IMG/VR virus record: IMGVR_UViG_2778261537_000018
Span: 1-24,993 of that record
DNA length: 24,993 bases
Reading direction: 5' to 3' (one strand)
Source of the DNA: a virus
Taxonomy: Duplodnaviria; Heunggongvirae; Uroviricota; Caudoviricetes
Shown: positions 1-17,217 of the stretch, piece by piece
Position numbering within the stretch: position 1 is the stretch's first letter
How the letters are laid out: each line of letters begins with the position of its first letter
The notes under the pieces: model-generated
What the model was told of the DNA's origin: nothing
Database searches by the model: none
The model's input: the letters and a program-made list of their open reading frames with translations, nothing else
Position numbers and translations under genes: made by a program

Positions 1-1719
1 ATGATTTTTAGGGATAGCTTGAGAGTATTACCTTATGGTCGAGTAGATAATGATTTCTTCCAGATAGAAGAAAGACGTTCATGGAATGCAGGGCGATATT
101 ATTGGTCTAATAGAAGGATTTTTGGTTATATTGGAATTACTCAATCCAGTAATAAAGAGCTGAAAGATAAGTCGGGGAGAGAGGGATTCATAAGAAACCA
201 GGCTGCAAGAGAACTGAAAACTATTATATCTAATTTGTTAACTGAACTTGCTGATAGATTTTTTGGTTCACGTTCTGATGACCGTAAAGAGCTTTTAGAA
301 CAAGTTAAGCGTGAAAAAGAGTTAAGAAAATCTGCTCAACAACAAGCTCGAAAATCAACACAAAAAAGTTTTTCAGAAGCTTTGAAGAATCAGACACCAG
401 TTCTTGATGCTTCCTTGGAGGCTGTTAAAAGGCTGAAAACTAAGCTTGATAAAACTGATGGTTCGTTAGATTTAAACTATCTTAAAATTATAGACAGTGA
501 TCTTACAAACTTAGATGCGTTGCGCAGTGAAATTAAAACGCCTATCAAACCTCCAAAACTTGGAATGTATGAAGAGAAATATAGAGACTACAGAGATAAA
601 TTTAATGAGTTCTCTGCGTATATTCTACAAATGAAGTTAGCAATTAATAAACTTGATTCTGAATTAAATAAACTTGAGCCTTCATTGTCAGCGAAAAATC
701 ACCTTGAAAAAAATCAAGGTATTATTAATTCTAAACTAACTAAGTTTAATAACACGATAGAGGAGAAGATACATTCTCTTTTAAAAAAATGGGCCGATGA
801 AATAAAGGTTGATCGAAGTGATTATTATGCTAAAACTATATCAGTTGTTGATTCAATAGATAATGATTCACAAATTGAAAATGTGTTTAATTTGCTCGAT
901 AGTTTATATGTTGAGTCAGTTGATACCCTAATTTTCAAATATCAATCAATAATAAAAGGTCTCGATAGATTATTTGAAGGTATAAACTTAGATTCAGCAT
1001 TCTCATTATCTGAAGAAGAACGCTCATATTTTGAAGAAAAAGCTAAAAGTTTAAACGCGCTTGCACAGTTAGGTATTAGTGTTGAGATAATATCTCATGA
1101 ACTTGAAGAAATGGATTCTATGGTAACCAGAGGACTAAACTCTCTTCCTACTTCTGTAAAAGAACACCCTGGTTTTTCATTGGCGTTAAATGCTCACAGA
1201 TCGCTTACTCAACAAATACGTTTCTTATCACCTTTGAAAATATCAGGTTATCAATCCAGGCAGAGAATAACTGGAAAAAATATCATGGATTATGTCCTGA
1301 AGTTCTTTGGGGAGCGTTTCGAACGGCAACGAATAACTATTGAATTTAGTGAAGAGTTTAAGCAAATCGCAATAACAGATATACCATCAAGGATCTATCC
1401 TGTTTTTACTAATATTATCAACAATGCAATGTATTGGGTCAGTCTGTCAAATAATAGGCTCATAAAGATTGGTTTTGTGAATTCTTTGGTTATCATAGCA
1501 AATTCTGGTCCGGCAATTGATACCGATGATATCCCGCGACTATTTGAACTATTTTATAGCAAAAGAGCAAATGGACATGGGGTAGGTCTGTATCTATGTC
1601 GAGAAAACCTTGCTGTTGCACATCATAAAATATGGTATTCAGAACCTGATGAAGGCGATAACTATTTAATAAAAGATGGCGCTAATTTTGTGATCCAGTT
1701 CAATGGAGTGGAGTTCTAA
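1..1719 (+). CDS. Cytoplasmic histidine-kinase-like protein: coiled-coil N-terminal half, HisKA-like H-box, C-terminal HATPase_c (GHKL) domain
   Basis: ATG at 1, stop TAA 1717-1719. H-box-like IISHELEEM about 100 aa upstream of N-box NIINNAMYW; degenerate G1 box NSGPAID, F-box LFELF, G2 box GHGVGL. N-terminal half is K/E/L-rich (coiled-coil-like) with no obvious hydrophobic TM segment. Both window ends coincide with start codons, so the gene is probably complete. Confidence 0.6.
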   Translation: MIFRDSLRVLPYGRVDNDFFQIEERRSWNAGRYYWSNRRIFGYIGITQSSNKELKDKSGREGFIRNQAARELKTIISNLLTELADRFFGSRSDDRKELLEQVKREKELRKSAQQQARKSTQKSFSEALKNQTPVLDASLEAVKRLKTKLDKTDGSLDLNYLKIIDSDLTNLDALRSEIKTPIKPPKLGMYEEKYRDYRDKFNEFSAYILQMKLAINKLDSELNKLEPSLSAKNHLEKNQGIINSKLTKFNNTIEEKIHSLLKKWADEIKVDRSDYYAKTISVVDSIDNDSQIENVFNLLDSLYVESVDTLIFKYQSIIKGLDRLFEGINLDSAFSLSEEERSYFEEKAKSLNALAQLGISVEIISHELEEMDSMVTRGLNSLPTSVKEHPGFSLALNAHRSLTQQIRFLSPLKISGYQSRQRITGKNIMDYVLKFFGERFERQRITIEFSEEFKQIAITDIPSRIYPVFTNIINNAMYWVSLSNNRLIKIGFVNSLVIIANSGPAIDTDDIPRLFELFYSKRANGHGVGLYLCRENLAVAHHKIWYSEPDEGDNYLIKDGANFVIQFNGVEF

Positions 1720-1720
1720 T

Positions 1721-3469
1721 ATGACAGTGGCAAATTATAATTCTCTTGTCCAGAAAACTTTCTGCGAAAATGCAATTCGTTCCGTTGTCATGATTGATGA
1801 CGATTTTCTGACGTATTCTGAATCAATCAGGGCGTTGAATAACGAAGTTGATTTAGACTACAACAAAATTGACTCATCTAAACGAGCCGCTACTCTTGAG
1901 AGCTTTTTTCAATCTAAAAATATGATTTGTGATGTTGACAATGGTTCTGTTAATTTCGATGTGGATCGGATTAGAAAATCAGATCTTATTATTGTAGATT
2001 ATCATCTTGATAATAATGCACCTGATAAAACACTTAAACTATTACAAGATTTGAAAGACTCCGATCATTTAAATATGATTGTAATATATACTAGAGAGAA
2101 TTTAGAAACGGTTTGGATGCAGATATCATCGACTCTCAAAGGTGCTCTGGATATCAACAGCTTGATCATTGACTACGATAATGAAGATGTCCAAAGTTAT
2201 TGGGAAGACGTTGTATTACCGAACTTAAATGATAATGGTAATAAAGCTCTCACAAGAGATGAAACAATAGCCTATATTAAAGACAGTAAGCCTTGTAGAA
2301 GAATTAAAAGATTAATACATGATGATGCTGTGTTGGAGGATCAAAAGGATAAAAACTTCATTGCAAAAATGATTGCAGAATATGCTGTGTCTAGAAATGC
2401 AATTATTTCTAGCAACACATCTGGCTATGTCATTCGGGGTGATGAAAGCGGAGTAAAATGGATTCAATGTGGTAATATCTTTGTCTCCCTATTTCATAAG
2501 GTTCAAGATGATCATGAAAACGATGGAGATAGGATTTGGCAAACTCTCAATGATTCTCTCATTGAATGGAAACCATCTTATTATCAGTTAATAAAATCTG
2601 AAATTCAGAATGCAATCGAAGCTGAGGCTTTATCTTTTGTAAATCATTTGGCTAACGATCATTACGGTCAAGCTGCGTGGTTAAATGAGATATTAAAATC
2701 AGACTCGCCTGATATTAGATGTAGAAATATTGACTTTGTATTTGGTAATTTATCAGAAGAGCTTTATCAAAGACTTAAAAATAATAATACGCTGGATGAA
2801 TTTATCAAAAGTGTTTTTGATAGCTATTCAAATGAATACGCTAACAGCGGAGTTGCTGCATTGCTCCAATATTGCTCTTCAAAAATGGATCTGCCATCAA
2901 ATAATGATACTTATCACGAAATGTATCATGCTTTAAATATGAATTTGTCTTCAAAGAATTTTGAAGATGGTCATATTTCTACTGGCACTATTTTCTTTGA
3001 TACAGAGTCGAACAAATGGTATTTATGTGTGTCTGCGGCATGTGATTTGGTTCCTACTCAGGGTAACGACCCTCACCATGTAAGATTAAGTCCGCACAGG
3101 CTCATTAAAGTTCTGGAGCTTTTTAACGCCAGTCAGAGTAAAGCATTGCCATTTGCTGAACATTCGAAATATATATATGTAATGCATAAAAATCAAAGAA
3201 AATATCTCTCTATTTTCGAAGGGGATAAAACGCTTCCTGTTGTTGATTATATGGTGGTGTTGAATCATGGAACAACAGTTGATGGCGAAGAAAAAAATAT
3301 TATTTCTGCCGTGTTTTTAAGTAATATGGATGGCAACGTGCAAAATGTTCCTGTCCGACTCAAACTTAAATCTCAACTGAGAACTGGTTATGCAGAAAGA
3401 TATCAGGCTATAGCGTCTCAGTATAGCTCAAGGATTGGTGTGGATTATGTATCAATGATGCTACCATAA
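1721..3469 (+). CDS. Receiver (REC) domain protein with large uncharacterised C-terminal domain
   Basis: ATG 1721 preceded by GGAG at 1709-1712, immediately after the upstream stop (operon-like). N-terminal about 120 aa show REC hallmarks: VVMIDDD (acidic pair), DLIIVDYHLD (phospho-acceptor Asp position), MIVIYT (conserved Thr), then Lys. The remaining about 450 aa have no motif I recognise. ORF track start at 1703 overlaps the upstream gene; 1721 preferred. Confidence 0.6.
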   Translation: MTVANYNSLVQKTFCENAIRSVVMIDDDFLTYSESIRALNNEVDLDYNKIDSSKRAATLESFFQSKNMICDVDNGSVNFDVDRIRKSDLIIVDYHLDNNAPDKTLKLLQDLKDSDHLNMIVIYTRENLETVWMQISSTLKGALDINSLIIDYDNEDVQSYWEDVVLPNLNDNGNKALTRDETIAYIKDSKPCRRIKRLIHDDAVLEDQKDKNFIAKMIAEYAVSRNAIISSNTSGYVIRGDESGVKWIQCGNIFVSLFHKVQDDHENDGDRIWQTLNDSLIEWKPSYYQLIKSEIQNAIEAEALSFVNHLANDHYGQAAWLNEILKSDSPDIRCRNIDFVFGNLSEELYQRLKNNNTLDEFIKSVFDSYSNEYANSGVAALLQYCSSKMDLPSNNDTYHEMYHALNMNLSSKNFEDGHISTGTIFFDTESNKWYLCVSAACDLVPTQGNDPHHVRLSPHRLIKVLELFNASQSKALPFAEHSKYIYVMHKNQRKYLSIFEGDKTLPVVDYMVVLNHGTTVDGEEKNIISAVFLSNMDGNVQNVPVRLKLKSQLRTGYAERYQAIASQYSSRIGVDYVSMMLP

Positions 3470-3540
3470 TTATTATATTTTAGGCGTGGTGATTTTTTTT
3501 CGCCATGCCTATTTTATATTTATCATCACAATGATGTTGT

Positions 3541-3957
3541 TTATTTTTGTTTAAGTCTTCTAAGCTTCATGCATTCTAATGAGAATAATAATAGAGTTGT
3601 GCTGTATATAAAGCCAGAGTTAGTTAATAACTTTAAATTTAATGCTTCAGGATTTTCACTGAGAAAGTGAAAGGCATAAACTAAGTATACAGCTAAAGTA
3701 GCCGTTCCAATTGTTGGTCCAATATCGCCTTGATCATGAGGTTCAAGGTTTACATTGAACTTGAAGATTAGCCATTCAAATCCCCAAGTAAAAAAAACAA
3801 CTAATATCATGGCTGCGAATAATTTCGCGATGTTATCTGCTGATGGATTCATCAGAACAGATTGTTTCTGAAAAAATTCACAAAGTGAGAGTCCGAAAAA
3901 AATAAAAAAAAGTGGTCTGGAACTAAATTTTTCAAAAACTTTGAATAGGGTTTCCAT
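3541..3957 (-). CDS. Small hydrophobic protein (about 4 predicted TM segments), function unknown
   Basis: 138-aa ORF 38 bp downstream of the P4-type int on the same strand; hydrophobic stretches FFIFFGLSL, AAMILVVFFTWGF, ATLAVYLVYAF, FIYSTTLLLF; weak SD (GAAGGT) upstream of ATG at 3957. Confidence 0.4.
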   Translation of the reverse strand: METLFKVFEKFSSRPLFFIFFGLSLCEFFQKQSVLMNPSADNIAKLFAAMILVVFFTWGFEWLIFKFNVNLEPHDQGDIGPTIGTATLAVYLVYAFHFLSENPEALNLKLLTNSGFIYSTTLLLFSLECMKLRRLKQK

Positions 3958-3995
3958 TTTCTTTACCTTCAGGATTATATTAGCTATTCTGATAC

Positions 3996-5225
3996 TTAGG
4001 CTACCAGAGCATTTGATCTTTGAGCTTGAACGTAATCACTCCACCATTGCATCAAACTCTGTCGCTCTATCAGATATTCTGCACGATTGTATGCTGCGAT
4101 AATTTCATCTTTTTTCGAGTGGGCAAGCGCTGCCTCAAGAACTTCAGCTCTGAATTTACCAGACTCCTCTGCCGCTGTTCGTGCAATAGAACGCATACCG
4201 TGAGCTACAAGCTCGCCTCCGAACCCCATTCGGATGATAGCTGCGTTGGCTGTTTGTTCATGCATATGATTAAGAGGCGCTTTTATGCTGGGGAAAACCC
4301 ATTCTCTATGCCCACTTATTGATTTCATTAATTCAAGGATGCGCAAAGCTTCTTTACTCAAAGGAACTTTGTGAAGCTTTTTCATTTTCATGAAATCAGC
4401 AGGAATGTTCCAAATGCTGTTGGTTGTATCAATATCAGACCACCTTGCGCGAACGGCTTCACCCGGACGAACCCATGTCAACAATTGCCATTCAATTAGC
4501 ATACGTGTTTCCAACCGGATTGACGCATTCGTCAAAGATTCCATAAACCTTGGCAATTCGCTTGGGGGAAGGGCAGGCATATTTTGCTTTTTTGGTTTAC
4601 TGAATCTTTGACCAAGGTTGTCAGCCGGGTTGAACTCAATAAGTTCTTCAGTAGCTGCCCACCGGAAGATTTCATTCAGACGTGAAATGATACGGCGTAG
4701 AGTTTCCAATACGCCTCGTTGCTCAATAGGATCAAGGTGTTGTTTTAAGAGCTTAGGTCGGATCTCATTGATAGGGACATTACCCAGACCGGGAAAGACA
4801 TTTCTCTCTAAGCTGCGCCAGATGTCTGCTGCATGGTCTTGTGAGATACCTGATGTCTTTACCTTCTCATCTAACCATTTCCGCGCTACGGCTTGGAGAG
4901 TGTGCTCAGTAGCACTCTTTAATGCCTTCGCCTTATCGTTGTTATGGATTTGGGGATCAACACCATTTGCCAGAAAGGAGAGATATTCATCACGTAAGGC
5001 TCTGGCTCTTGCAAGGGTAAGGTGAGGATATGTCCCAAGGCTCATTTTGGTTCTTTTCTTGCTCACTGGTACTGCATACCTGAAATACCAATTTTTCTTG
5101 CCTCCTTTCGCCAAAGGAGCGATTCGTAGAATCAGACCATCACCGTCAAACAAGTTGATTTCTTTATCGGCTGGCTTGGTGCTTTTGATTTCAGTGTCAG
5201 TGAGCTTCTTAGCGATTTTTGCCAT
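3996..5225 (-). CDS. int: P4-type (CP4-57 IntA-like) tyrosine integrase
   Basis: N-terminus MAKIAKKLTDTEIKSTKP... with the arm-binding (DUF4102-like) signature of P4-family integrases; C-terminal catalytic region HGMRSIARTAAEE...AHS...YNRAEY. Start taken at the internal ATG (5223-5225) rather than the ORF-track start 5267. Sits next to the ssrA-derived 45-bp repeat, as intA does next to ssrA in E. coli K-12. Confidence 0.85.
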   Translation of the reverse strand: MAKIAKKLTDTEIKSTKPADKEINLFDGDGLILRIAPLAKGGKKNWYFRYAVPVSKKRTKMSLGTYPHLTLARARALRDEYLSFLANGVDPQIHNNDKAKALKSATEHTLQAVARKWLDEKVKTSGISQDHAADIWRSLERNVFPGLGNVPINEIRPKLLKQHLDPIEQRGVLETLRRIISRLNEIFRWAATEELIEFNPADNLGQRFSKPKKQNMPALPPSELPRFMESLTNASIRLETRMLIEWQLLTWVRPGEAVRARWSDIDTTNSIWNIPADFMKMKKLHKVPLSKEALRILELMKSISGHREWVFPSIKAPLNHMHEQTANAAIIRMGFGGELVAHGMRSIARTAAEESGKFRAEVLEAALAHSKKDEIIAAYNRAEYLIERQSLMQWWSDYVQAQRSNALVA

Positions 5226-5390
5226 TTTGGGACCCTCGGTTTTTGGACCCTTCTTAGTGGGTCCCATTCAGGGTGCCATAACTCGTAGTTCTCAGCAATT
5301 CTCACTGGACGACAATAGACGTAAAAAAGCCCGCAGAGCTTGTGCTGTGTGGGCTTAGTAGACTTCATTGAACTTCAAACAACTAAAAAG

Positions 5391-5435
5391 TGGTGGAGCT
5401 GGCGGGAGTTGAACCCGCGTCCGAAATTCCTACAT
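5391..5435. repeat. 45-bp direct repeat identical to the 3' end of ssrA (att site between tandem elements)
   Basis: tggtggagctggcgggagttgaacccgcgtccgaaattcctacat is identical at 5391-5435 and 23934-23978 (the 3' end of the intact tmRNA gene); sequences diverge immediately beyond on both sides. Confidence 0.85.
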
Positions 5436-5527
5436 ACTATTATTAATGGTTGAGATGCAATAATTTATCAATATTATCATTGATTTAGTGTTTTGGCGTA
5501 TTAGCAAGTGTTATGCATTTTTACTCT

Positions 5528-5550
5528 TCTGTCGCCATTTTGCCGCCACT
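5528..5550. repeat. 23-bp direct repeat, left copy (tctgtcgccattttgccgccact)
   Basis: Exact 23-mer also present at 23865-23887, same orientation; each copy lies just inside the 45-bp ssrA repeats. Confidence 0.8.
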
Positions 5551-5643
5551 TATACTAATGCAATAGAATATCTACCTACGATAATTTATACTGGAAGTGA
5601 TGAAAAAATAAAAAAATATCAATACTTTTCGATGTGGGGATAT

Positions 5644-7386
5644 ATGAAAACACAGAAATTCGTAAGTGAACTTTTTTTAGAAAATGGGCAGTTTATTCTA
5701 GTTGGCTTAACTGGAAGAACTGGTTCTGGTTGTACTACAGCAGCAACTATTTTAGAAAGTAATGAGACAGTATTTCCCGATGTGGATAAATTAACTGATT
5801 TTTATAATGGTTTAGATTTACAGCGTTATAAGATAGTTAAGGATTTCACTGAGAATCATTGGGAGGCATTTTACTCAATCAAGGTTAGTGACTTGCTATC
5901 AGTTTATTTGTTAGCAATGTCACATACTGAACTTTCACACTTCATCACGTCGTCAACTAAAGATAGCATTGATGAAGATAAATTAAACAAGATACTTAAT
6001 GAAGGAGCATTTTCAAAAACACAACTTAGAAAAATAAGGACGGATATATTAAAAGCACTTATTGATCATAGTCAAGAATTAGATCTCGATAATCTAGATG
6101 TATCTAACATAAGAAAAACATTGCATTTGGTTAGGTTTTTCACTAATAACTTCAAAAAAGAACTTAATGAGATAAATACAGGTCTTTATGTATCAACTTA
6201 TCAGGCCGCTGGAAAATCTGTTAGACGGCTTGGTGAAGTAAAAACAAACTATGAAACAGAAGAATTTGATCCAAAATCGGTATTTCATTTGCCTGAAACT
6301 ATTAATAGGGTCATTAAGCTAATTAGAAAAAGCCAAGGTGGTAAGGCATTAGTAGTTATTGATGCTATACGTAATCCATATGAAGCTAAATTCTTTAAAG
6401 ATAGATATGCTGCATTCCATTTGGTATCAATTAATGCTCCTGATGAGCATAGGAAAAAATATTTACAGAAGCTACACAAGTTTTCATCTGAGCGCATTAA
6501 ACACATTGATGATATTGAATCAGGAAAAGGAGATAAAGACAATCAATATAAACATTTAACGAACCCTAATGTAACGAAATGCATAGAAATTTCGGATATA
6601 CATCTTTATAATCCTAAAAATGAGTTTGATAACAATAACATACTTAAAGCACAACTTGCATGGTATATCGCTCTAATGAAGCATCCTGGATTGATCACTC
6701 CTACAGCGATGGAGCGAGTTATGCAGGTCGCATATACTGTTAAATTAAACTCTGGATGTATATCGAGGCAGGTCGGTGCCGTTGTTACAGATAATGATAA
6801 TTCAATTAAATCAGTTGGTTGGAATGATGTAGCTAAAGGGCAGATACCATGTTCAATGAGATCACTCGATGGGTTGATCAATGATTTTGATTCGAAAGTA
6901 TATAGCTCATATGAGCGAAATGATGCTCTTTTTAGAAAGAAAGCTAAAAGTAATTTAATAAAGTTTAGAGCGATTGAATCAAGCTCTGAAATTTTTAAAG
7001 GACGTAATTTGTCATATTGCTTCAAGGATATTCATAATAGTCTTAATGATGATAAAAAAGGGAATCAGGTCCATACCAGAGCTTTACATGCTGAAGAAAA
7101 TGCCTTTTTACAATTATCTAAATATGGTGGCGTTGGTGTCCAAGGTGGTAAGTTGTATACTACAGCAAGTCCTTGTGAACTTTGTGCAAAAAAAGCATAT
7201 CAATTAGAGGTCGCTGAAATAATTTTCATTGATCCTTATCCGGGTATTGCACAAGATCATATTATTAATATAGGTAATAATCCACCTAAATTAATTCAAT
7301 TTAGAGGGGCAATTGGTAAATCATATCATCGATTATATGAACAAATTATTCCTATGAAAGATGAGTTGGATTATTTATCAATGTAA
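5644..7386 (+). CDS. P-loop kinase-like domain fused to cytidine/deoxycytidylate deaminase domain (AvcD/DcdV-like anti-phage dCTP deaminase architecture)
   Basis: N-terminal Walker-A-like GLTGRTGSGCTT; C-terminal zinc-deaminase signature HAEENAF...SPCELCAKK (H-x-E and PC-x-x-C). Start placed at ATG 5644 (GGGGA 3-7 nt upstream); in-frame alternatives at 5632 and 5488. AT-rich relative to phage backbone. Stop 7384-7386 is 9 bp from the convergent int stop. Confidence 0.65.
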   Translation: MKTQKFVSELFLENGQFILVGLTGRTGSGCTTAATILESNETVFPDVDKLTDFYNGLDLQRYKIVKDFTENHWEAFYSIKVSDLLSVYLLAMSHTELSHFITSSTKDSIDEDKLNKILNEGAFSKTQLRKIRTDILKALIDHSQELDLDNLDVSNIRKTLHLVRFFTNNFKKELNEINTGLYVSTYQAAGKSVRRLGEVKTNYETEEFDPKSVFHLPETINRVIKLIRKSQGGKALVVIDAIRNPYEAKFFKDRYAAFHLVSINAPDEHRKKYLQKLHKFSSERIKHIDDIESGKGDKDNQYKHLTNPNVTKCIEISDIHLYNPKNEFDNNNILKAQLAWYIALMKHPGLITPTAMERVMQVAYTVKLNSGCISRQVGAVVTDNDNSIKSVGWNDVAKGQIPCSMRSLDGLINDFDSKVYSSYERNDALFRKKAKSNLIKFRAIESSSEIFKGRNLSYCFKDIHNSLNDDKKGNQVHTRALHAEENAFLQLSKYGGVGVQGGKLYTTASPCELCAKKAYQLEVAEIIFIDPYPGIAQDHIINIGNNPPKLIQFRGAIGKSYHRLYEQIIPMKDELDYLSM

Positions 7387-7395: not shown

Positions 7396-8409
7396 TTATA
7401 AAAAGTTGAGTGGGTTTTTATAAACTGCGTCTTCAAGATGATCTGGTGAAAAGTGTGAATATACCATGGTCATCTTGATATCAGAATGACCCAAAATATC
7501 TCTCAAAACAAGTATGTTTCCGCCGTTCATCATAAAATGACTGGCGAAAGTATGGCGTAGCACATGAGTGCATTGTCCCGCTGGTAAGTCTATATTGGCC
7601 CGCTTCACTGCTCGTTCAAAAGCTTTTCTGCATGGCGTGAACAGCTTCCCCCTGTTTTTGGGTAGTTCGTCGTATAGCTCCTGAGATATCGGTACAGTTC
7701 GGTTTTTCTTGCCTTTGGTTTTGGTATAGGTGATCCGATATTTTGATAACTGATGGCCTTGAAGGTTTTCGGCTTCACTCCACCGCGCGCCGGTAGCTAG
7801 GCATACCTTTGCGATCATCAATAGGCTAGGGCTTTGAGAATCAGCGCAGGCATCAAGCAGGCGTTTAATTTCGTCCAAGGCTAAGAATGCCAATTCACCC
7901 TCTGCGATTTTGAATGTCGGTAGCCCGGCGAGTGGGTTAGGCGCTGACCAGTGGCCCAACTTCTTCAGGGTGCCAAAAACGGATGATAAGTTACGCTGTT
8001 CAAGGTTTACCGTGCGTGGTTTTACTGGCGACATTAGCGCGCCTTCTTCGTTACGTACCTCTCCTTTCAACCGTGCTTCACGATATTTCGTAAAGTCACC
8101 GGCGGTTAATTCAGAGGCGACGGGATCGCCTAGGCCATTGCAGATAATATTCAGTTTCGCCATCAGGCGCTTGGGGTCTGCGAGCGTCTGGCCGTAAAGG
8201 GAGTGCCACTGCTCAATCAATTCTGACAAACGCCGCCGATCTTCCTTTTCACCCAGCCACGGCTTTTTGTTCACTTGATCCATGGTGAAGTTTTCGAATG
8301 CTACAGCCTCGCCCTTTGTCGCAAATTGCTTGCGCACGCGCTTGCCGTCACGCCCGTTCGGGTAACACTCGCACAACCATTTTCCGTTCGGCTGTTTTCT
8401 GATGGTCAT
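7396..8409 (-). CDS. int: P2/186-type phage tyrosine integrase
   Basis: 337 aa; N-terminal ...NGKRVRKQFATKGEAVAFE and C-terminal HVLRHTFASHFMMNGGNILVLRDILGHSDIKMTMVYSHF (catalytic His/Arg/Tyr region). Start ATG 1 nt after the cI stop on the same strand (translational coupling). Confidence 0.85.
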   Translation of the reverse strand: MTIRKQPNGKWLCECYPNGRDGKRVRKQFATKGEAVAFENFTMDQVNKKPWLGEKEDRRRLSELIEQWHSLYGQTLADPKRLMAKLNIICNGLGDPVASELTAGDFTKYREARLKGEVRNEEGALMSPVKPRTVNLEQRNLSSVFGTLKKLGHWSAPNPLAGLPTFKIAEGELAFLALDEIKRLLDACADSQSPSLLMIAKVCLATGARWSEAENLQGHQLSKYRITYTKTKGKKNRTVPISQELYDELPKNRGKLFTPCRKAFERAVKRANIDLPAGQCTHVLRHTFASHFMMNGGNILVLRDILGHSDIKMTMVYSHFSPDHLEDAVYKNPLNFL

Positions 8410-8410
8410 A

Positions 8411-9043
8411 TCAAAGGCTCTTAATGATTTTCAATGCGCGGCCAACAACCTCGATATCATCCAGGCTGCACTCAAACGAAGAATCATCTTGATGTACAAC
8501 TAATCTGTTTCCGGGAAGGCGAGTTAGCTTAACAATGCTTTTTATCCCGTCGATATCGACCAACCACATCCCATTCACTGGTAGTGTCTGGTTACGGTCA
8601 ATTAAATATGAATCGCCATTGGTATTTACGAGAAGTAGCTCGCTTGAGTCAGGGGGAAGCAGGCTGCTATCAATGATGGCCTTCCCGGCTTCAATCAACG
8701 AACCTCCGATAAGGCTAGCCTTATCGATCTCTGGCGATACAAGCTCAGAAAGTGGTTTTACTTTGCTAGAGTTCACGAAATTGATACTTTTTCTATCATC
8801 AATTTTTGTTCCTGGTTCGCCTTGTCCTGTAGTTAGCCAGAGTAATGAAACGCCTGTTTCAAGAGCGCATTGGATCACCCATTCTGCAGGGAAGCTATCC
8901 CTTAAGTATCTGTTTGCCATAGTGCTTTTAGATGCGCCTAAGTGATCGCATAGCTGCTGTCGGGACTTGAAATCATAGGCAGCCATCAACCTATGGATAG
9001 CCTCTCTACCCCCTGTATTCTCGCCAGCCTTCACCTGTATCAT
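8411..9043 (-). CDS. CI-like phage repressor (186 cI-like, HTH N-terminal domain)
   Basis: 210 aa immediately upstream of int on the same strand; HTH-like segment QQLCDHLGASKSTMANRYLRDSFPAEWVIQCALETGVSLLWLTTGQG; position and orientation match the 186 cI-int operon. Confidence 0.7.
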   Translation of the reverse strand: MIQVKAGENTGGREAIHRLMAAYDFKSRQQLCDHLGASKSTMANRYLRDSFPAEWVIQCALETGVSLLWLTTGQGEPGTKIDDRKSINFVNSSKVKPLSELVSPEIDKASLIGGSLIEAGKAIIDSSLLPPDSSELLLVNTNGDSYLIDRNQTLPVNGMWLVDIDGIKSIVKLTRLPGNRLVVHQDDSSFECSLDDIEVVGRALKIIKSL

Positions 9044-9055
9044 TTTTTAATCCTA

Positions 9056-9107
9056 TTGACGTATCAAATATTGGATCGTAGTATCTCGATTGTTCAAATA
9101 TTGGATC
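9056..9107 (+). promoter_or_regulatory. Lytic promoter (pR-like) with flanking 14-bp direct-repeat operator candidates
   Basis: TTGACG (9056-9061), 17-nt spacer, TAGTAT (9079-9084); direct repeat tcaaatattggatc at 9064-9077 and 9094-9107. Lies in the divergent intergenic region between cI and the apl-like gene. Confidence 0.4.
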
Positions 9108-9162
9108 ACATAAAACAAGATAAAACGACATAAACCAAACCTTAACTGAGAGATACTGCACT

Positions 9163-9405
9163 ATGAGCACTGATATTTCAATTCGTGTACCAAAAGAGAT
9201 GGCTACGCCTGCAGAGTTCGCTGAATGGGAAGGTATCTCCCGTGGCTCTGTTTACCAGAAAATTCACCATGGCCAGCTCGCCAAGTACATGGTCAAGAAA
9301 GAAAAAAACAAAGGTCGCGTAAGCCTTCGTTACCTGATGTACAAAACCGACCAGGTTCGTGAATCCCTCGGTCATTCCAACTTCCGCGTCATTGTTGGTA
9401 AGTAA
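9163..9405 (+). CDS. Apl/Cox-like small excisionase/regulator
   Basis: 80-aa ORF, first gene of the rightward operon facing cI, as apl is in 186; basic, possible HTH (WEGISRGSVYQKIHHGQL). Assignment is positional plus weak motif. Confidence 0.5.
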   Translation: MSTDISIRVPKEMATPAEFAEWEGISRGSVYQKIHHGQLAKYMVKKEKNKGRVSLRYLMYKTDQVRESLGHSNFRVIVGK

Positions 9406-9437
9406 GTTCAATTATGGGAACTTTCTAAGGGGGCAGC

Positions 9438-9947
9438 ATGTTTGATTACAAGATTTCCAAACATCCGAATTTTGATGAAGCCTGTAGAGCTTTTGCACTA
9501 CGTCACAACATGACGAAGCTGGCAGAACGTGCAGGAATGAATGTTCAGACACTGCGAAACAAACTCAACCCAGATCAACCGCATCAGCTCACAGCGCCAG
9601 AAATCTGGTTGCTCACCGATCTGACTGAAGATTCAACGCTGGTAGATGGCTTTTTGGCACAGATTCACTGCCTGCCATGCGTACCAATTAATGAGGTGGC
9701 AAAAGAGAAACTGCCACATTACGTCATGAGTGCAACCGCAGAGATCGGGCGTGTTGCTGCAGGTGCGGTATCTGGTGATGTAAAAACTAGTGCCGGTCGT
9801 CGTGATGCTATCAGCAGCATTAACTCTGTAACACGACTGATGGCGCTGGCGGCTGTTTCATTGCAGGCCCGTTTACAGGCTAATCCTGCGATGGTGAGTG
9901 CAGTTGATACCGTGACTGGCCTCGGTGCTTCATTCGGTTTGCTGTGA
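9438..9947 (+). CDS. Phage CII-like regulatory protein (186 CII / CP76 family)
   Basis: 169-aa ORF after the apl-like gene; length and position match 186 cII as I recall it; N-terminal HTH-like region. No database check possible. Confidence 0.55.
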   Translation: MFDYKISKHPNFDEACRAFALRHNMTKLAERAGMNVQTLRNKLNPDQPHQLTAPEIWLLTDLTEDSTLVDGFLAQIHCLPCVPINEVAKEKLPHYVMSATAEIGRVAAGAVSGDVKTSAGRRDAISSINSVTRLMALAAVSLQARLQANPAMVSAVDTVTGLGASFGLL

Positions 9948-9954
9948 GGTGCTT

Positions 9955-10251
9955 ATGCTGACGAAAGAACCATCATTTGCATCGCTGCTGGTAAAACAAA
10001 GCCCGGCAATGCACTACGGTCACGGCTGGATCATGGGTGAGGATGGTAAACGCTGGCATCCATGTCATTCACAAGATGAATTGCTGTCTGAATTGACCAC
10101 GAGGAAACGGAGAAAGTCAAAATGTATGCAGCGGAAAGTGAAGTGGTTTATCAGTTTCGTTACAGAGGGGAGAGTTATTCAGTACCTGAAGATGATTTGC
10201 TCTGTTGTTATCCGTCGTTGTCGGGCGATGGCAGTTACTTTTTCACGCTAA
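9955..10251 (+). CDS. Fil-like small phage protein (C-terminal extent uncertain)
   Basis: ATG 9955 with GAGGTG 4 nt upstream, immediately after the cII stop; N-terminus ...HYGHGWIMGEDGKRWHPC resembles enterobacterial prophage Fil proteins as I recall them. Overlaps the next ORF by about 130 nt in another frame. Confidence 0.35.
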   Translation: MLTKEPSFASLLVKQSPAMHYGHGWIMGEDGKRWHPCHSQDELLSELTTRKRRKSKCMQRKVKWFISFVTEGRVIQYLKMICSVVIRRCRAMAVTFSR

Positions 10252-10346
10252 GGGATGGGACGTTTTTACGGGGAGAGCAGGTTAAAGAGACGATACGAAA
10301 AAATGTATCTCCTCTTGAACGTTACCGTAAGAACAAAGAACGATAG
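10122..10346 (+). CDS. Hypothetical small phage protein
   Basis: 74-aa ORF with GGAG about 10 nt upstream; overlaps the 3' part of the Fil-like ORF in a different frame, so one of the two is mis-delimited or there is a frameshift. Confidence 0.3.
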   Translation: MYAAESEVVYQFRYRGESYSVPEDDLLCCYPSLSGDGSYFFTLRDGTFLRGEQVKETIRKNVSPLERYRKNKER

Positions 10347-10368
10347 TTGCGTTTTGGGGATATGAATT

Positions 10369-10710
10369 ATGGCAATTAATGGCGCTGCGGCGACTGTTCC
10401 ATTAAGCCCCGGTGAACGCCTGAATGGACTTAATCACATTGCGGAGTTAAGGGCGAAAGTATTTGGCCTGAATATTGAGTCAGAGCTTGAGCGGTTTATT
10501 AAAGATATGCGTGATCCACGGGATATCAATAACGAACAAAATAAACGAGCACTGGCTGCCATATTCTTTATGGCAAAAATTCCAGCTGAACGTCATAGCA
10601 TCAGCATTAATGAGCTGACCACTGACGAAAAGCGGGAGTTGATTAAAGCAATGAATCATTTTCGTGCAGTGGTGAGCTTATTTCCCAGACGGCTAACCAT
10701 GCCGAATTAA
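10369..10710 (+). CDS. Hypothetical phage early-region protein
   Basis: 113-aa ORF with GGGGA SD 8 nt upstream; same strand and region as P2 orf80-83 / 186 CP genes. Confidence 0.45.
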   Translation: MAINGAAATVPLSPGERLNGLNHIAELRAKVFGLNIESELERFIKDMRDPRDINNEQNKRALAAIFFMAKIPAERHSISINELTTDEKRELIKAMNHFRAVVSLFPRRLTMPN

Positions 10711-10777
10711 GCAACTAATGAAATTAATGGCGTAAACCCGCCGGGCATCCCTTTATCTAAATTCAGGAGAATTGATT

Positions 10778-11011
10778 ATGCGTAATATTGAAACCCTCAC
10801 GACTAAAACCGGACCGGATGATGCAGGGCTTAATATTTTACTGACAGAGGCTCGTCTGGAAGAACGCCGGGCAAGGGCTGAAGCAATGGCAGCTCGCCTT
10901 GATAGCCTGGCGTGTCATATCACATCCCGCCAGCTAAACCACGTCGAAGCGGCAGAACTGCTGCGTGTGACTGCTGAAGCAATCCAGAACGAAGCGCAGG
11001 AGATCCACTAA
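10778..11011 (+). CDS. Hypothetical phage early-region protein
   Basis: ATG 10778 preceded by AGGAGA (10765-10770); 77 aa; stop overlaps the start of the TraR-like gene (TAATG). Confidence 0.45.
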   Translation: MRNIETLTTKTGPDDAGLNILLTEARLEERRARAEAMAARLDSLACHITSRQLNHVEAAELLRVTAEAIQNEAQEIH

Positions 11012-11238
11012 TGGCAGATGCAATGGATCTCGTACAGCAGCGCGTTGAAGAAGAACGCCAGCGCTATATCCGTGCTGCCCGTGCCAAAACACCGGGCGTG
11101 TCTCGTGTGCTTTGTATTGAATGTGAAGCGCCAATTCCGCCAGCACGACGCCGCGCCATTCCTGGAGTGCAGCTTTGCATTACCTGTCAGGAAATCGCAG
11201 AGCTGAAAGGCAAACATTACAACGGAGGTGTTGTATGA
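11011..11238 (+). CDS. TraR/DksA-family C4 zinc-finger protein
   Basis: 75 aa with CIECEAPIPPARRRAIPGVQLCITCQ (C-x2-C...C-x2-C), typical of phage TraR-like proteins; start overlaps the upstream stop and its own stop overlaps the dam start. Confidence 0.65.
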   Translation: MADAMDLVQQRVEEERQRYIRAARAKTPGVSRVLCIECEAPIPPARRRAIPGVQLCITCQEIAELKGKHYNGGVV

Positions 11239-12092
11239 GCACCATCCTGAAATGGGCGGGAAATAAAACCGCCATTATGTCCGAACTGAAAAAACATCTT
11301 CCTGCTGGCCCGCGACTGGTTGAACCTTTCGCGGGTTCCTGTGCTGTGATGATGGAGACGGATTACCCCAGCTATCTTGTTGCGGATATTAATCCTGATT
11401 TAATCAACCTCTATAAAAAGATTGTCGCTGATTGCGAAGCGTTTATATCTCGTGCCAGAGCTTTATTTGAGGAAGCAAACAGGGATGTGGCTTATTACAA
11501 CATAAGGCAGGAGTTTAATTACTCCACTGAAATTACTGATTTCATGAAAGCGGTATATTTCCTGTATCTCAATCGTCATGGTTACCGTGGGTTATGTCGC
11601 TATAACAAGAGCGGGCATTTCAACATTCCGTACGGTAATTATAAAAATCCGTATTTCCCTGAAAAAGAAATTCGCGCATTTGCAGAGAAAGCCCAGCGGG
11701 CAACGTTTATCTGCGCAAGCTTTGATGAAACGCTGGCGATGCTGCAGGTGGGGGATGTGGTGTATTGCGATCCGCCGTATGACGGTACGTTTTCCGGCTA
11801 TCACACTGATGGTTTCACTGAAGATGACCAGTATCACCTGGCATCCGTTCTTGAACATCGGTCATCAGAAGGACATCCGGTCATTGTTTCTAACAGTGAC
11901 ACATCCCTGATCCGTTCGCTGTATCGCAATTTTACTCACCACTACATCAAGGCAAAACGCAGCATCGGTGTGGCAGCTGGTGAGAGTAAATCTGCAACAG
12001 AAATCATCGCTGTTTCCGGGCCGCGCTGCTGGGTGGGATTTGATCCTTCGCGTGGCGTGGATAGTTCAGCCGTGTACGGAGTACGTGCATGA
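11235..12092 (+). CDS. dam: DNA adenine methyltransferase (Dam-like, orphan N6-A MTase)
   Basis: Motif I-like EPFAGSCAV and catalytic motif DPPY ([12 protein letters not shown]); N-terminus [11 protein letters not shown]. Start at ATG 11235 (ORF-track start 11175 is an upstream extension). No adjacent restriction endonuclease gene. Confidence 0.8.
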
Positions 12093-14509
12093 GTCATGCC
12101 GATATGAACAACTGCTGCGGCTTTAACGAGGCTGCCGCAGCGTTCTCATGGAACAGCCCGAAAAAGGCCATTAACCCTTATCTGGACCCGGCGGAAGTTG
12201 CGCCGGTTTCTGCGCTTTCAAACCTGATCACTCTGTACGCTGCCGATAACGAGCAGGAACAACTGCGCCGCGAGGCACTGAGTGATCAGGTCTGGGAGCG
12301 TTATTTTTTTAATGAATCACGTGATCCTGTCCAGCGCGAAATGGAGCAGGATAAGCTCATTAGCCGGGCAAAGCTGGCGCATGAGCAGCAGCGTTTTAAT
12401 CCGGATATGGTCATTCTGGCGGACGTCAACGCCCAGCCTTCCCATATCAGCAAGCCGCTGATGCAACGTATTGAATACTTTAGCAGCCTGGGCAGGCCAA
12501 AGGCTTATTCCCGCTATTTACGTGAGACGATTAAGCCATGTCTGGAACGACTGGAGCATGTACGCGACAGCCAGCTATCTGCATCTTTTCGTTTTATGGC
12601 AAGCCATGAAGGGCTGGACGGCCTGCTTATCCTGCCTGAAATGAGTCAGGATCAGGTGAAGCGCCTGTCTACCCTTGTCGCTGCGCATATGAGCATGTGC
12701 CTTGATGCCGCTTGTGGTGATTTGTATGCCACCGATGACGTTAAGCCAGAAGAAATCCGCAAAACATGGGAAAAGGTGGCAGCGGAAACCCTGCGTCTGG
12801 ATGTTATTCCGCCTGCGTTTGAGCAACTCCGTCGGAAAAGAAACCGCCGTAAACCCGTGCCCTATGAACTCATTCCGGGTTCGCTGGCGCGTATGTTGTG
12901 TGCCGACTGGTGGTATCGGAAATTATGGAAGATGCGTTGCGAATGGCGGGAAGAGCAGTTGCGTGCTGTCTGCCTGGTCAGCAAAAAAGCATCTCCCTAT
13001 GTCAGCTATGAAGCCGTGATGCATAAACGTGAGCAGCGCCGCAAGTCACTGGAGTTTTTCCGTTCTCATGAACTGGTGAACGAAGAGGGCGACACGCTGG
13101 ATATGGAAGACGTGGTAAACGCCAGCAGCAGCAACCCGGCGCACCGCCGCAATGAGATGATGGCCTGTGTTAAAGGTCTGGAGCTTATCGCGGAAATGCG
13201 TGGTGATTGCGCCGTTTTCTACACCATTACCTGTCCGTCACGTTTCCATTCCACGCTCAATAACGGCAGACCAAACCCAACCTGGACAAATGCGACGGTA
13301 AGACAAAGCAGCGATTATCTGGTCGGCATGTTTGCTGCATTTCGTAAGGCGATGCACAAAGCCGGGTTGCGCTGGTATGGCGTGCGGGTGGCTGAGCCGC
13401 ATCATGACGGTACGGTTCACTGGCACCTGTTGTGTTTCATGCGCAAAAAAGACCGCCGTGCCATTACTGCATTGTTGCGTAAGTTTGCCATCCGTGAAGA
13501 CCGCGAGGAACTGGGTAATAACACTGGTCCACGCTTTAAATCTGAGCTGATAAACCCGCGCAAAGGAACACCGACAAGCTACATCGCGAAATACATTAGT
13601 AAGAACATTGACGGGCGTGGTCTGGCTGGCGAGATCAGCAAGGAAACGGGTAAATCCCTGCGTGATAACGCTGAATACGTTAATGCCTGGGCGTCTCTGC
13701 ATCGTGTTCAGCAATTCCGCTTCTTTGGTATTCCGGGGCGTCAGGCTTACCGTGAACTGCGATTGCTGGCTGGTCAGGCGGCAAGGCAACAGGGCGACAA
13801 AAAAGCAGGTGCGCCGGTACTGGATAACCCGCGCCTTGATGCCATCCTGGCTGCTGCTGATGCTGGTTGTTTTGCCACTTACATCATGAAGCAGGGTGGC
13901 GTACTGGTTCCCCGCAAATATCACCTCATCAGAACTGCTTATGAAATTAACGAAGAGCCGACCGCCTATGGCGATCACGGCATTCGTATTTATGGCATCT
14001 GGTCACCCATTGCAGAGGGCAAGATCTGCACTCATGCAGTGAAGTGGAAAATGGTCCGTAAAGCCGTTGACGTTCAGGAGGCGGTAGCCGACCAGGGCGC
14101 TTGCGCCCCTTGGACTCGGACTCGTGGCAATAACTGTCCCCTTGCTGAAAATTTGAACCAACAAGGGAAAGACAAATCAGCTGATGGGGATACCAGAACG
14201 GATATCACCCGCATGGATGACAAGGAGTTGCACGATTACCTGCACAGTATGAGCAAAAAAGAACGCCGGGAACTGGCAGCAAGGTTACACCTGGTTAAAC
14301 CGAAACGGTGTAAAGACTACAAACAGCGAATTACAGACCATCAGCGACAGCAGCTCGTGTATGAGCTGAAGTCCAGAGGGTTTGATGGTAGCGAGAAAGA
14401 GGTCGATTTACTCCTTCGCGGCGGCAGTATTCCGTCAGGAGCAGGCCTGCGTATCTTCTATCGGAACCAGCGTTTGCAGGAAGATGATAAGTGGCGAAAC
14501 CTGTATTAA
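12089..14509 (+). CDS. Phage replication initiation endonuclease (P2 gpA / 186 RepA family, rolling-circle type)
   Basis: 806 aa; start overlaps the dam stop (ATGA); contains the conserved [11 protein letters not shown] region I associate with P2 A-type replication proteins; position matches P2/186 synteny. Confidence 0.8.
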
Positions 14510-14601
14510 TTACGATGGTTAACCATTCGTGCTCTTAATAATACCAGGCATATCAGGCTGATAAACGTAAAAAAACGTTTTACATCAGTAAGATTATTAT
14601 A

Positions 14602-14621
14602 TACTGTAAATATAAACAGTG
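14602..14621 (+). promoter_or_regulatory. LexA (SOS) box upstream of the small ORF / DinI-like operon
   Basis: TACTGTAAATATAAACAGTG fits CTGT-N8-ACAG; lies about 40 bp upstream of a strong SD (AGGAGG 14653-14658) and ATG 14663. Confidence 0.5.
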
Positions 14622-14662
14622 GTTGTACATACAGTATTGCGTGTGGTGTCATAGGAGGAAAG

Positions 14663-14851
14663 ATGCAGGACTATTTTTTGGAGTCTTTGAAGCTCCAGCG
14701 CATTGATTTTTTTCTTAAGCTTGTAGCGGCCAGTGAGTGTAGTGATGAAGAGAAGGGACTGGCTCTGCAGTGGGTTTCTGAATTGACTGATGAACTCATG
14801 GCAAAAATCAGAAGCCACGAATACAACCGCTCAATGGATGTCATCAGCTGA
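14663..14851 (+). CDS. Small SOS-controlled phage protein (possible N-terminal part of a Tum-like antirepressor)
   Basis: 62-aa ORF with strong SD AGGAGG 5 nt upstream and LexA box in its promoter region; followed 10 nt later by the DinI-like ORF in another frame. Confidence 0.45.
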   Translation: MQDYFLESLKLQRIDFFLKLVAASECSDEEKGLALQWVSELTDELMAKIRSHEYNRSMDVIS

Positions 14852-14861
14852 GGTGACTTTT

Positions 14862-15095
14862 ATGCGCATTGAAATAATGATCGATAAAGAGCAGAAGATT
14901 AGCCAGTCTACCCTGGACGCCCTTGAATCCGAGCTTTACCGTAATCTGCGCCCCCTGTATCCCAAAACGGTAATTCGTATCCGCAAAGGTAGCTCTAACG
15001 GTGTGGAACTGACCGGACTGCAACTGGACGAAGAAAGGAAGCAAGTGATGAAAATTATGCAGAAGGTGTGGGAAGACGACAGCTGGCTGCATTAA
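14862..15095 (+). CDS. DinI-family protein (phage Tum/DinI-like)
   Basis: 77 aa starting MRIEIMIDKEQKISQSTLDALESELYRNLRPLYP...KVWEDDSWL, closely resembling E. coli DinI (MRIEVTIAK...AGAIDAL...E.WE..D.W); SD GAGGTG upstream. Confidence 0.7.
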   Translation: MRIEIMIDKEQKISQSTLDALESELYRNLRPLYPKTVIRIRKGSSNGVELTGLQLDEERKQVMKIMQKVWEDDSWLH

Positions 15096-17187: not shown

Positions 17188-17190
17188 ACT

Positions 17191-17217
17191 AAAGGGAGGT
17201 TGCCTCCCTTTTTTTTA
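17191..17217. terminator. Rho-independent terminator between the AIPR-like gene and the portal gene (bidirectional candidate)
   Basis: aaAGGGAGGttgCCTCCCTttttttttt: 7-bp GC-rich stem (17193-17199 / 17203-17209), 3-nt loop, T-run 17209-17216; lies between convergent stops at 17187 and 17219. Confidence 0.6.

Follow-up and report, generated by a model that had tools for sequence, protein, structure and literature searches.

Background

[quoted passage not shown] In that work the linkage of the two genes was put at 91.6 %, an N-terminal HATPase_c_3 domain was reported for 83 % of the members, a minority architecture devoid of HATPase_c_3 was listed, E. coli members were already included and the pair was treated as a possible regulator of restriction-modification systems. 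Ambrosia (AbrR-AbrA-AbrB-AbrC-AbrD) has been validated experimentally as an anti-phage system that requires the Asp residue of its REC protein; in this system phages were not protected by methylation, and an action on transcription was put forward for the REC protein (van den Berg et al., bioRxiv 10.1101/2025.09.30.679545).

The window, i.e. the whole stretch of 24,993 nt that was analyzed, carries at one end a kinase-like and a receiver gene that an earlier note, made from the sequence alone, had presented as a possibly undescribed module. Both domains proved to belong to the Pfam families named above, and the proteins are already named at NCBI.

Organization of the locus

The features of the locus are as follows:

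1-1719, plus strand: kinase-remnant ORF of 572 aa with the stop codon TAA at 1717-1719; 3' remnant (codons 417-988 of 988) of a paraMORC-GHKL/histidine-kinase fusion gene
1066-1242, plus strand: HEF_HK DHp/H-box, with His366 at 1096-1098
1384-1659, plus strand: HATPase_c catalytic domain (Pfam match)
1721-3469, plus strand: receiver-protein ORF of 582 aa, full length, with ATG at 1721
1775-2245, plus strand: Response_reg_2 REC domain with a helical insert; phospho-acceptor D93 at 1997-1999
2570-3466, plus strand: C-terminal module specific to the family (residues 284-582), which comprises a helical bundle and a beta-rich domain
3481-3511, plus strand: terminator-like hairpin with a stem of 12 bp and a T run behind it, 12 nt past the receiver stop codon
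3541-3957, minus strand: gene for a predicted membrane protein of 138 aa, which accompanies the enterobacterial island version and lies outside the conserved core
3996-5267, minus strand: P4-family tyrosine integrase (Pfam Arm-DNA-bind_3, Phage_int_M and Phage_integrase)
5391-5435, no strand: direct repeat of 45 nt, an exact copy of 23934-23978 at the 3' end of ssrA
23934-24296: ssrA, 18.5 kb off

The two leading ORFs are adjacent, encoded on the same strand and AT-rich (32-35 % GC), as the earlier note had it. A single nucleotide separates them, and GGAGTGGAG is located 7-15 nt upstream of the receiver-gene ATG. The hairpin behind the receiver gene probably marks the end of the operon. A promoter scan of the IS3 junction (see below) and of the inside of the operon gave counts not above those of shuffled controls. 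The 138-aa gene is found downstream in seven other loci (L002, L005, L012-L014, L016 and L017) and is absent from more distant ones; its product had no family match except a PHROG of unknown function.

The three Pfam domains of the integrase and the 45-nt ssrA repeat place a P4-family integrase beside a tmRNA att site, as is typical of P4-like satellites. The repeat is the att scar that delimits the island remnant on its ssrA-proximal side. The stretch from there to ssrA contains a P2/186-like prophage remnant. The P4-type integrase at ssrA reported earlier stands as far as the adjacent integrase and the ssrA island are concerned, but ssrA itself is 18.5 kb away. A P4 satellite proper is not demonstrable: where P4 hallmark genes (alpha primase-helicase, psu, sid and delta) would be expected, the annotated genes of the intact island L002 are a relaxase and extra tyrosine recombinases, besides several ORFs without a Pfam match, and the intact element is classed as an integrative mobilisable island. 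Support was obtained for describing the pair as a two-component-like module that is cytoplasmic and borne by a mobile island at the ssrA hotspot. Other defence genes nearby are a dCTP deaminase gene and an AIPR/AbiU-like gene.

The kinase gene and its truncation

The H-box and the GHKL catalytic domain claimed for the first protein were recovered by Pfam. PF19191 (HEF_HK) matched residues 356-414 with 26.0 bits against a cutoff of 24.1 (H-box ISHELEE, His366) and PF02518 (HATPase_c) matched residues 462-553 with 44.9 bits; HEF_HK followed by a C-terminal HATPase_c is the arrangement of the kinase in the published pair. Part of a post-GHKL domain (RVLPYG motif) and a coiled-coil region are also retained in the 572-aa ORF. 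The protein is, however, not the complete sensor-less kinase that it had been taken for, but what remains of a gene of 988 codons, namely the last 572. Orthologues of 988 aa are 99 % identical to it over all 572 residues and begin with a PF13589 (HATPase_c_3, paraMORC) domain that the window ORF does not have. The seeming absence of a sensor is therefore an artefact of the 5' truncation, and since HATPase_c_3 was lost by deletion, the window copy is a degraded member of the HEF_HK/Response_reg_2 family. A natural isoform of 572 aa was considered and rejected, since the Salmonella ORF (L005) is uninterrupted over 994 codons; for the same reason the 572-aa annotations in Salmonella, Klebsiella and Pectobacterium are start-site artefacts.

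When the E. coli locus (L001) was compared with the intact L002, the homology began exactly at an IS3 inverted repeat, at L002 nt 11127 and codon ~376. The locus, with ~574 E. coli carriers, is present in about a tenth (10 %) of the complete genomes of this species, and the IS3 junction was found in 483 complete E. coli genomes. Of the 5,426 complete genomes searched, not one has the methylase and the N-terminal part of the kinase of this allele. Upstream of the locus, near-identical genomes contain IS3 or an amylase pseudogene, and it is from these genomes, not from the window itself, that the IS3 junction is placed ahead of position 1. By these alignments it is shown that, in the lineage of E. 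coli, the methylase gene was lost together with the initial ~375 codons of the fusion gene through an IS3-associated deletion; what is left is an intact receiver gene and a 572-codon ORF that starts from an internal Met. In the window no methylase is encoded from position 1 to the integrase. The joint loss of the methylase and the GHKL sensor half is as would be expected if an unprotected sensor were toxic.

Gene order in the intact family

In both L002 and L003 the order is methylase, 988-aa kinase, 582-aa receiver, the 138-aa gene on the minus strand and integrase; the contig of L002 is long enough to show smpB as the next gene. A scan of one genome per species gave 40 loci of other species with enough flank. 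Directly upstream of the receiver gene, all 40 encode a kinase of ~980-1070 aa with both GHKL ends, and a C5 methyltransferase gene is located immediately upstream or downstream in all 40 as well. The triad recurs in E. coli SE15, at ECSF_RS22155-RS26660, and, at 25-45 % identity, in loci whose contexts are unrelated, a prophage among them. Judged by gene order, the conserved unit of the family is a strict methylase-kinase-receiver triad, which argues for self/non-self logic over generic regulation. The advice of the earlier note to inspect the upstream side for a third gene proved to be the decisive check. Such a gene does exist in the relatives, but it encodes a C5 methyltransferase and not an Hpt protein, and it was lost here in the same deletion as the sensor half. 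A separate nuclease gene was rejected as the effector; SBD-HNH genes occur near only 5 loci (L005, L010, L014, L023 and L050) and are hence accessory.

The receiver protein

The second protein matched PF19192 (Response_reg_2) with 109 bits, and D26, D27, D93, T124 and K260 are invariant across 47 sequences, so that the adjacent gene encodes a Response_reg_2 domain complete with its conserved residues (DD, D, T and K), as in the published pair. The earlier description of a canonical REC domain followed by a C-terminus without a recognised motif was correct. The ~300-aa C-terminal module had no match in Pfam, NCBIfam, PADLOC or PDB sequences. Pfam and NCBIfam scans of 20 diverse members and a profile search of PDB sequences supported no assignment, nor was there support in hhalign comparisons with MazF, Kid and CcdB, for which the toxin sequences were entered by hand. 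A profile of the module searched against 1.84 billion representative proteins retrieved 646 clusters. Among the 150 clusters listed, nearly all have the module at about residue 270-600 of proteins of ~560-680 aa and none has an alternative fusion, the shorter entries looking like fragments. As the only part of the conserved core without an assignment, the module is the presumed effector, and the best candidate for that role.

Proposed function and alternative readings

The intact cassette would act as a restriction-modification-like defence gated by a phosphorelay. The C5 methylase would mark self DNA, and the GHKL/MORC-like module would sense unmodified or foreign DNA or another infection cue. 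Sensing could make the kinase phosphorylate itself on the H-box His, which is His782 of the full-length protein and His366 of the window ORF; from there the phosphate may pass to Asp93 of the receiver and switch on the C-terminal module, presumably a toxin or a nuclease. A defence role is plausible for the family. Positions 1-5435 of the window are read as the ssrA-proximal stump of an integrative mobilisable island, the cargo of which was formerly the three-gene cassette. This explanation as a whole, comprising the stump, the deletion, the mechanism outlined above and an inert window copy, is considered likely. Since the methylase, and with it self-marking, and the sensing half are gone, the window copy is most likely an inert, decaying relic.

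The two genes as they stand could instead form a self-sufficient phosphorelay defence or abortive-infection module, in which a sensor-less cytoplasmic kinase phosphorylates the receiver-effector on infection. Such a module would be compatible with the intact DHp and catalytic domains, the whole and translationally coupled receiver gene, the neighbouring defence genes and the published minority of members without HATPase_c_3. However, the kinase ORF begins inside a conserved domain of the 988-aa protein at an IS3-associated breakpoint, a full-length kinase and a methylase accompany the receiver in 40 of 40 loci of other species, the 572-aa forms in Salmonella and other species are annotation artefacts, and the E. 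coli copies gather disruptions and mostly nonsynonymous SNPs. With a truncated kinase and a missing methylase, the distinct working defence module proposed for the window in the earlier note is very unlikely. That the genes are an ordinary housekeeping two-component pair of the core genome is suggested by their kinase and receiver domain types, but is extremely improbable for a locus confined to about a tenth of complete E. coli genomes, situated inside an ssrA island, low in GC content and devoid of a DNA-binding output domain. The survey of gene neighbourhoods, in which homologues were sporadic across phyla, in mobile contexts and always beside a methylase, effectively refutes this alternative by distribution and context.

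The state of the E. coli copies bears on a further reading, according to which the receiver protein alone was kept for a new role, as an orphan regulator or as an effector that takes its phosphate from another kinase or from acetyl-phosphate. The receiver gene is full length in the window; it is frameshifted in strain ET300 and IS-interrupted in O103 strain WL1467, and it is split at that site in 12 of 560 complete E. coli carriers and intact there in 548 (~98 %). Between the window and L002 it shows 13 synonymous and 2 nonsynonymous changes, and given this proportion the window copy may retain a residual function. These substitutions may, however, predate the truncation or sit on the other lineage. 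Among 8 E. coli copies, a small sample taken from a ranked spread and therefore biased, 8 nonsynonymous SNPs stand against 3 synonymous ones; the receiver gene accounts for 6 of the former and all 3 of the latter, the kinase remnant for the other 2 nonsynonymous SNPs. Together with the frameshift and the IS insertions, these SNPs speak for further decay within E. coli. Since no E. coli copy is less than 99 % identical to the others, the intact state of the receiver gene may just reflect recency, and its retention for a role of its own is regarded as improbable.

The deletion-remnant reading can also be extended. The intact cassette might represent a distinct restriction-modification-like immunity, in which DNA sensing is connected to a new effector fold through a His-Asp phosphorelay instead of directly, and the E. 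coli remnant, in which the effector gene and the kinase core are intact, might keep a methylase-independent activity, e.g. a toxin that the truncated kinase restrains by working as a phosphatase. We regard this extension as speculative and unlikely. For the window locus the outcome is mainly a correction, the apparent novel sensor-less pair being a deletion remnant of a catalogued family. The intact cassettes, e.g. in E. coli SE15 or in the ssrA islands of Serratia and Klebsiella, are good experimental targets.

Comparison with known systems

The published HEF_HK/Response_reg_2 pair (PMC8011034) and the present locus are alike in the adjacent genes, the cytoplasmic kinase, the linkage of the family to C5 methylases and restriction-modification genes and the scores above threshold with both Pfam models; the window copy differs in the loss of HATPase_c_3 and the methylase through deletion. 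That paper did not go as far as defining the C-terminal module, the strict core of three genes or the truncated allele of E. coli. A literature search by protein accession and domain names retrieved no experimental work on exactly this family.

The BbrUII/HgiDII Type II restriction enzymes and the paraMORC GHKL ATPases of restriction-modification systems (Iyer, Abhiman & Aravind 2008; PMC2292703) have the same GHKL subtype, the pairing with a C5 methylase and the mobile cassette in common with the family. The N-terminal GHKL domain of the intact orthologue matched the BbrUII/HgiDII model NF050001 (1.5e-13), with 50 bits against a cutoff of 550 and over the first ~125 residues (the GHKL N-terminus) only, which is short of a full-length match, and the GHKL domain of the SE15 orthologue matched the PADLOC REase_II model (5e-13). 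The rest of the fusion kinase consists of a coiled coil and a histidine-kinase core, not of a nuclease region.

Detocs is composed of the kinase DtcA, the Hpt protein DtcB and the REC-PNP protein DtcC. The common logic is a phosphorelay that ends in a REC-fused effector; the present family has a methylase partner and a GHKL sensor instead of Hpt and PNP. Between the abutting kinase and receiver genes there is no ORF and no Hpt match, and residues 284-582 gave no Pfam, PADLOC or NCBIfam match indicative of a PNP-like effector, the fold not being PNP-like. The missing Hpt gene and PNP-like domain had been recognized correctly, whereas the likeness to Detocs itself is unsupported; with no PADLOC Detocs match either, membership was rejected.

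AbrC of Ambrosia showed no similarity to the receiver protein by hhalign, and no AbrD-like HNH gene was found in the 46 scan loci and in L002, L005 and L007-L010. The differences extend to the gene content: Ambrosia has an N6-adenine methylase (AbrA), a 747-aa AbrB, a 209-aa REC protein with a proposed wHTH, a separate HNH nuclease (AbrD) and an XRE regulator, in contrast to the C5 methylase and the 582-aa REC protein with an orphan C-terminal module in the intact family. The two are alike in combining a methylase, a kinase-like HATPase_c_3...HATPase_c protein and a REC protein. When the first ~400 of the 747 aa of AbrB were compared with the full-length kinase, two collinear blocks were obtained, at residues 12-124 and 320-395 (E 6e-11 and 4e-6), so this part of AbrB has its homologue in the N-terminal portion of that kinase, which the window copy has lost. 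Ambrosia is a partial and more distant precedent for the intact family.

The gene pair and its family

The earlier note had recognised two adjacent plus-strand ORFs beside a P4-family integrase, an arrangement borne out by the ORF calls and Pfam matches:

1-1719, + strand: protein 1 ORF (572 aa), TAA at 1717-1719
1721-3469, + strand: protein 2 ORF (582 aa), ATG one base past the protein 1 stop, GGAGTGGAG just 5'
3481-3511: strong terminator-like hairpin, 3' of the protein 2 ORF
3541-3957, - strand: predicted membrane protein (138 aa), directly 3' of the receiver gene and in opposite orientation
3996-5267, - strand: P4-family integrase (Pfam)

Since the ORF layout, the Pfam domains and the integrase were confirmed, the physical observation is sound. 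The GC content of the two-ORF region is 32-35 % vs ~45-58 % in most of the remaining window. Protein 1 comprises Pfam domains HEF_HK (residues 356-414, H-box ISHELEE with His366) and HATPase_c (residues 462-553), and protein 2 contains Response_reg_2 (residues 19-175, 3.4e-31). The definitions of HEF_HK (PF19191) and Response_reg_2 (PF19192) go back to Bellieny-Rabelo et al. 2021 (PMC8011034), who reported a cytoplasmic two-component-like pair with a gene linkage of 91.6 %, enriched beside C5 methylases and restriction-modification genes, whose kinase usually has an N-terminal HATPase_c_3 (paraMORC-type GHKL) domain. The pair is therefore not an undescribed module, both domains being families described in that work. 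The family identity of the pair is established, and the window locus is a degraded copy of a described family. RefSeq names the E. coli proteins "ATP-binding protein" and "response regulator receiver domain".

The 138-aa gene is kept in enterobacterial islands (loci L002, L005, L012-L014, L016 and L017) and, among the loci compared, is absent from the distant relatives.

Island and prophage at ssrA

The remaining features of the window are as follows:

1-5435: island stump; its last 45 nt (5391-5435) repeat the ssrA 3' end
5436 to ~23933: P2/186-like prophage remnant between the island stump and ssrA, phage genes at 7396-22715
5488-7386, + strand: anti-phage dCTP deaminase (PADLOC dCTPase, 2.5e-140; NCBIfam antiphage_deaminase, 415 bits, cutoff 400)
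15364-17187, + strand: AIPR-family/AbiU-like protein (Pfam AIPR, 7e-35; PADLOC AbiU, 7e-25, and MzaE-like, 1.5e-13)
22627-23289 and 23328-23810, - strand: two ORFs, flanked by the truncated P2 late genes and by ssrA
23934-24296: ssrA, with smpB next

In view of these positions, the reading of the pair as cargo beside a P4-type integrase at ssrA was right in spirit: the integrase and the ssrA 3' copy are present, but the element is an integrative mobilisable island and a prophage now separates it from ssrA. The island of L002 (a Serratia/Klebsiella locus) has a relaxase and extra recombinases. In the window the incoming prophage displaced the island from ssrA. Its remnant encodes integrase, CI, CII, Fil, DUF5347, Dam, gpA, DinI, portal, terminase, scaffold, capsid and small terminase, and stops past the small-terminase gene, without tail genes.

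On one side of the AT-rich dCTP deaminase gene lies the 45-nt ssrA repeat and on the other the P2/186-like integrase gene, a position suggestive of cargo at the prophage remnant's att-proximal end; this arrangement is common to only 3-4 complete E. coli genomes. The AIPR-family gene (GC 35-38 %) sits between gpA/DinI and portal, a gap of the P2-like prophage known to harbour defence cargo. Near ssrA, the 160-aa product of the two-ORF pair matched phrog_2561 'DNA ligase' (2e-77) and the C-terminus of PADLOC candidate PDC-S48 (1.8e-7), and the 220-aa product was without a match.

Truncation of the kinase gene

Protein 1 had been regarded as a sensor-less kinase. Homologues of 988 aa with an N-terminal HATPase_c_3 domain, found in Klebsiella, Serratia and Salmonella and 99 % identical across all 572 residues, show that it is incomplete. 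The gene order in the intact loci L002 and L003 is C5 DNA methylase (402 aa), the 988-aa protein overlapping the methylase, the 582-aa receiver, the 138-aa gene (- strand) and the P4-family integrase, followed by smpB in L002, whose contig reaches further. Inspection of these loci for an upstream third gene revealed one, which encodes the C5 methylase and not an Hpt protein. Window positions 1-5434 align with L002 11249-16681 at 98.9 % identity.

The E. coli 2014C-3307 locus (L001) is 99.9 % identical to the window and has an IS3 element upstream. Its homology to L002 starts exactly at the IS3 inverted repeat (L002 nt 11127, codon ~376), with ...GGGTAGGATCA joined to CGCAGGGGTCGGCCC, and the 572-aa ORF starts at the next in-frame ATG, window position 1. 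Protein 1 is truncated, with the breakpoint at codon ~376, and the methylase was lost. The locus is carried by 574 of the 5,426 complete E. coli genomes searched and the exact L001-type IS3 junction by 483, and the methylase plus N-terminal segment of the window allele by none (0/5,426). In others, e.g. O103:H2 12009, the same breakpoint is joined straight to a flanking amylase pseudogene without IS3. The O103:H2-type flank (L058 60-225 vs L001 10595-11900) reads ...GGTTTTCC joined to CGCAGGGG, and IS3-bearing genomes read ...GGTTTTCCCATTC, IS3, CGCAGGGG. The events may have been an IS3-mediated deletion and then IS3 loss, or the reverse.

The 572-aa forms in Salmonella and other species are probably not truncated independently; the ORF of the Salmonella locus L005 is 994 codons long and uninterrupted. 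Start sites were probably mis-set in many database entries of exactly 572 aa (P0163-P0182; Salmonella, Klebsiella, Pectobacterium, Yersinia and Morganella), whose genes would be intact and ~990 codons long. A check of one locus (Salmonella L005 3993-6977) bore this out, and for this reason the 'group 2' architecture of PMC8011034 (without HATPase_c_3) may have been overcounted.

A 5.6-kb contig labelled as a Bacteroidales MAG (L011, DAIPZW010000118.1) carries the E. coli remnant, begins inside the IS3 end and encodes essentially the receiver protein of the window (one substitution, G448D). The contig almost certainly comes from E. coli and was placed in the wrong bin.

The receiver protein and the state of the remnant

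The receiver catalytic set (D26, D27, D93, T124, K260) is kept in 47 homologues, as are N406, G422, C436, C441, P445, Q552, R554, Y557, R571, G573 and D575 in the C-terminal part, where H403, T423 and D442 are nearly invariant. The lack of a recognisable motif there was corroborated: residues 284-582, modelled separately (pLDDT 85), gave no significant Foldseek match in the PDB and found no support from Pfam, NCBIfam, PDB sequence profiles or hhalign. The module occurs in 646 clusters among 1.84 billion representative proteins, almost always in the same place after the REC domain (150 matches listed of the 646 clusters). A toxin-like fold suggested for the model is a lead only.

Between the window and L002, the kinase remnant shows 3 synonymous and 6 nonsynonymous codon differences and the receiver gene 13 and 2, respectively. 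Among eight E. coli copies, all younger than the truncation and forming a small sample biased to weaker matches, the corresponding numbers are 0 and 2 for the kinase remnant and 3 and 6 for the receiver gene. A frameshift disrupts the receiver gene in ET300, and in O103 strain WL1467 the gene contains an IS3-family element, at a site where it is split in 12/560 genomes; strain 44 has IS1 in the 138-aa gene. These sequence changes show continuing decay and point to relaxed constraint among E. coli copies. The window locus is most likely inert.

The intact triad in other genomes

A scan with the receiver-protein profile, one genome per species, gave 46 loci from Gamma-, Alpha- and Betaproteobacteria, Planctomycetota, Verrucomicrobiota and Myxococcota, six of them uninformative (five on contigs too short for neighbours, and L011, the E. 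coli remnant copy). In all 40 informative loci the receiver gene is directly preceded by the gene of a ~980-1070-aa kinase that has both GHKL ends, and a C5 methyltransferase is encoded either immediately upstream or just past the receiver gene. At 25-45 % identity, the triad was found at a chromosomal site, on a metagenomic contig and in a lambdoid prophage of Aeromonas. Prophage, ICE-like region and ssrA islands occur as settings of homologues, and the consistent partner is the C5 methyltransferase. Among the loci compared, the window-type E. coli locus is the sole copy without methylase and sensor half; outside it the triad is obligate.

A divergent intact triad is probably present in ~205 E. 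coli genomes, the number of complete genomes giving the same weak DNA match, confirmed in SE15. The SE15 triad (L010 7697-14889, NC_013654.1; cytosine methylase, 989-aa ATP-binding protein and 607-aa receiver protein) lies within an ICE-like region with ArdC and MobH relaxase and would be a convenient native E. coli source of the intact version. An SBD-HNH 'phosphorothioated DNA-binding restriction endonuclease' is encoded 3' of it; such nuclease genes are near only five loci and are therefore accessory.

The intact triad could act as a restriction-modification-like defence gated by a phosphorelay, with the C-terminal module of the receiver protein as its putative effector. The methylase and sensor may have been lost together because the unprotected sensor would be toxic.

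Comparison with known systems

Detocs was excluded, as the earlier note's reservations about this likeness had foreshadowed: the locus has no Hpt gene, PNP domain or PADLOC match. Models of restriction enzymes recognise the GHKL domain both in the full-length kinase (N-terminal; NCBIfam BbrUII/HgiDII, 1.5e-13) and in the SE15 orthologue (PADLOC Type II REase, 5e-13), in agreement with the association of paraMORC and restriction described by Iyer et al. 2008 (PMC2292703). Ambrosia, a validated P. aeruginosa anti-phage cluster (2025 preprint, bioRxiv 10.1101/2025.09.30.679545), comprises an N6 methylase, the HATPase_c_3...HATPase_c protein AbrB, the REC protein AbrC, an HNH nuclease and an XRE regulator; D60 of AbrC is required. 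Two collinear blocks (E 6e-11 and 4e-6) of AbrB (first 400 residues, from preprint Table S1) aligned to the full-length kinase, yet AbrC (209 aa) showed no similarity to the 582-aa receiver protein, and the methylase is N6 whereas that of the triad is C5. Ambrosia is therefore the closest tested analogue of the triad, but a separate system.
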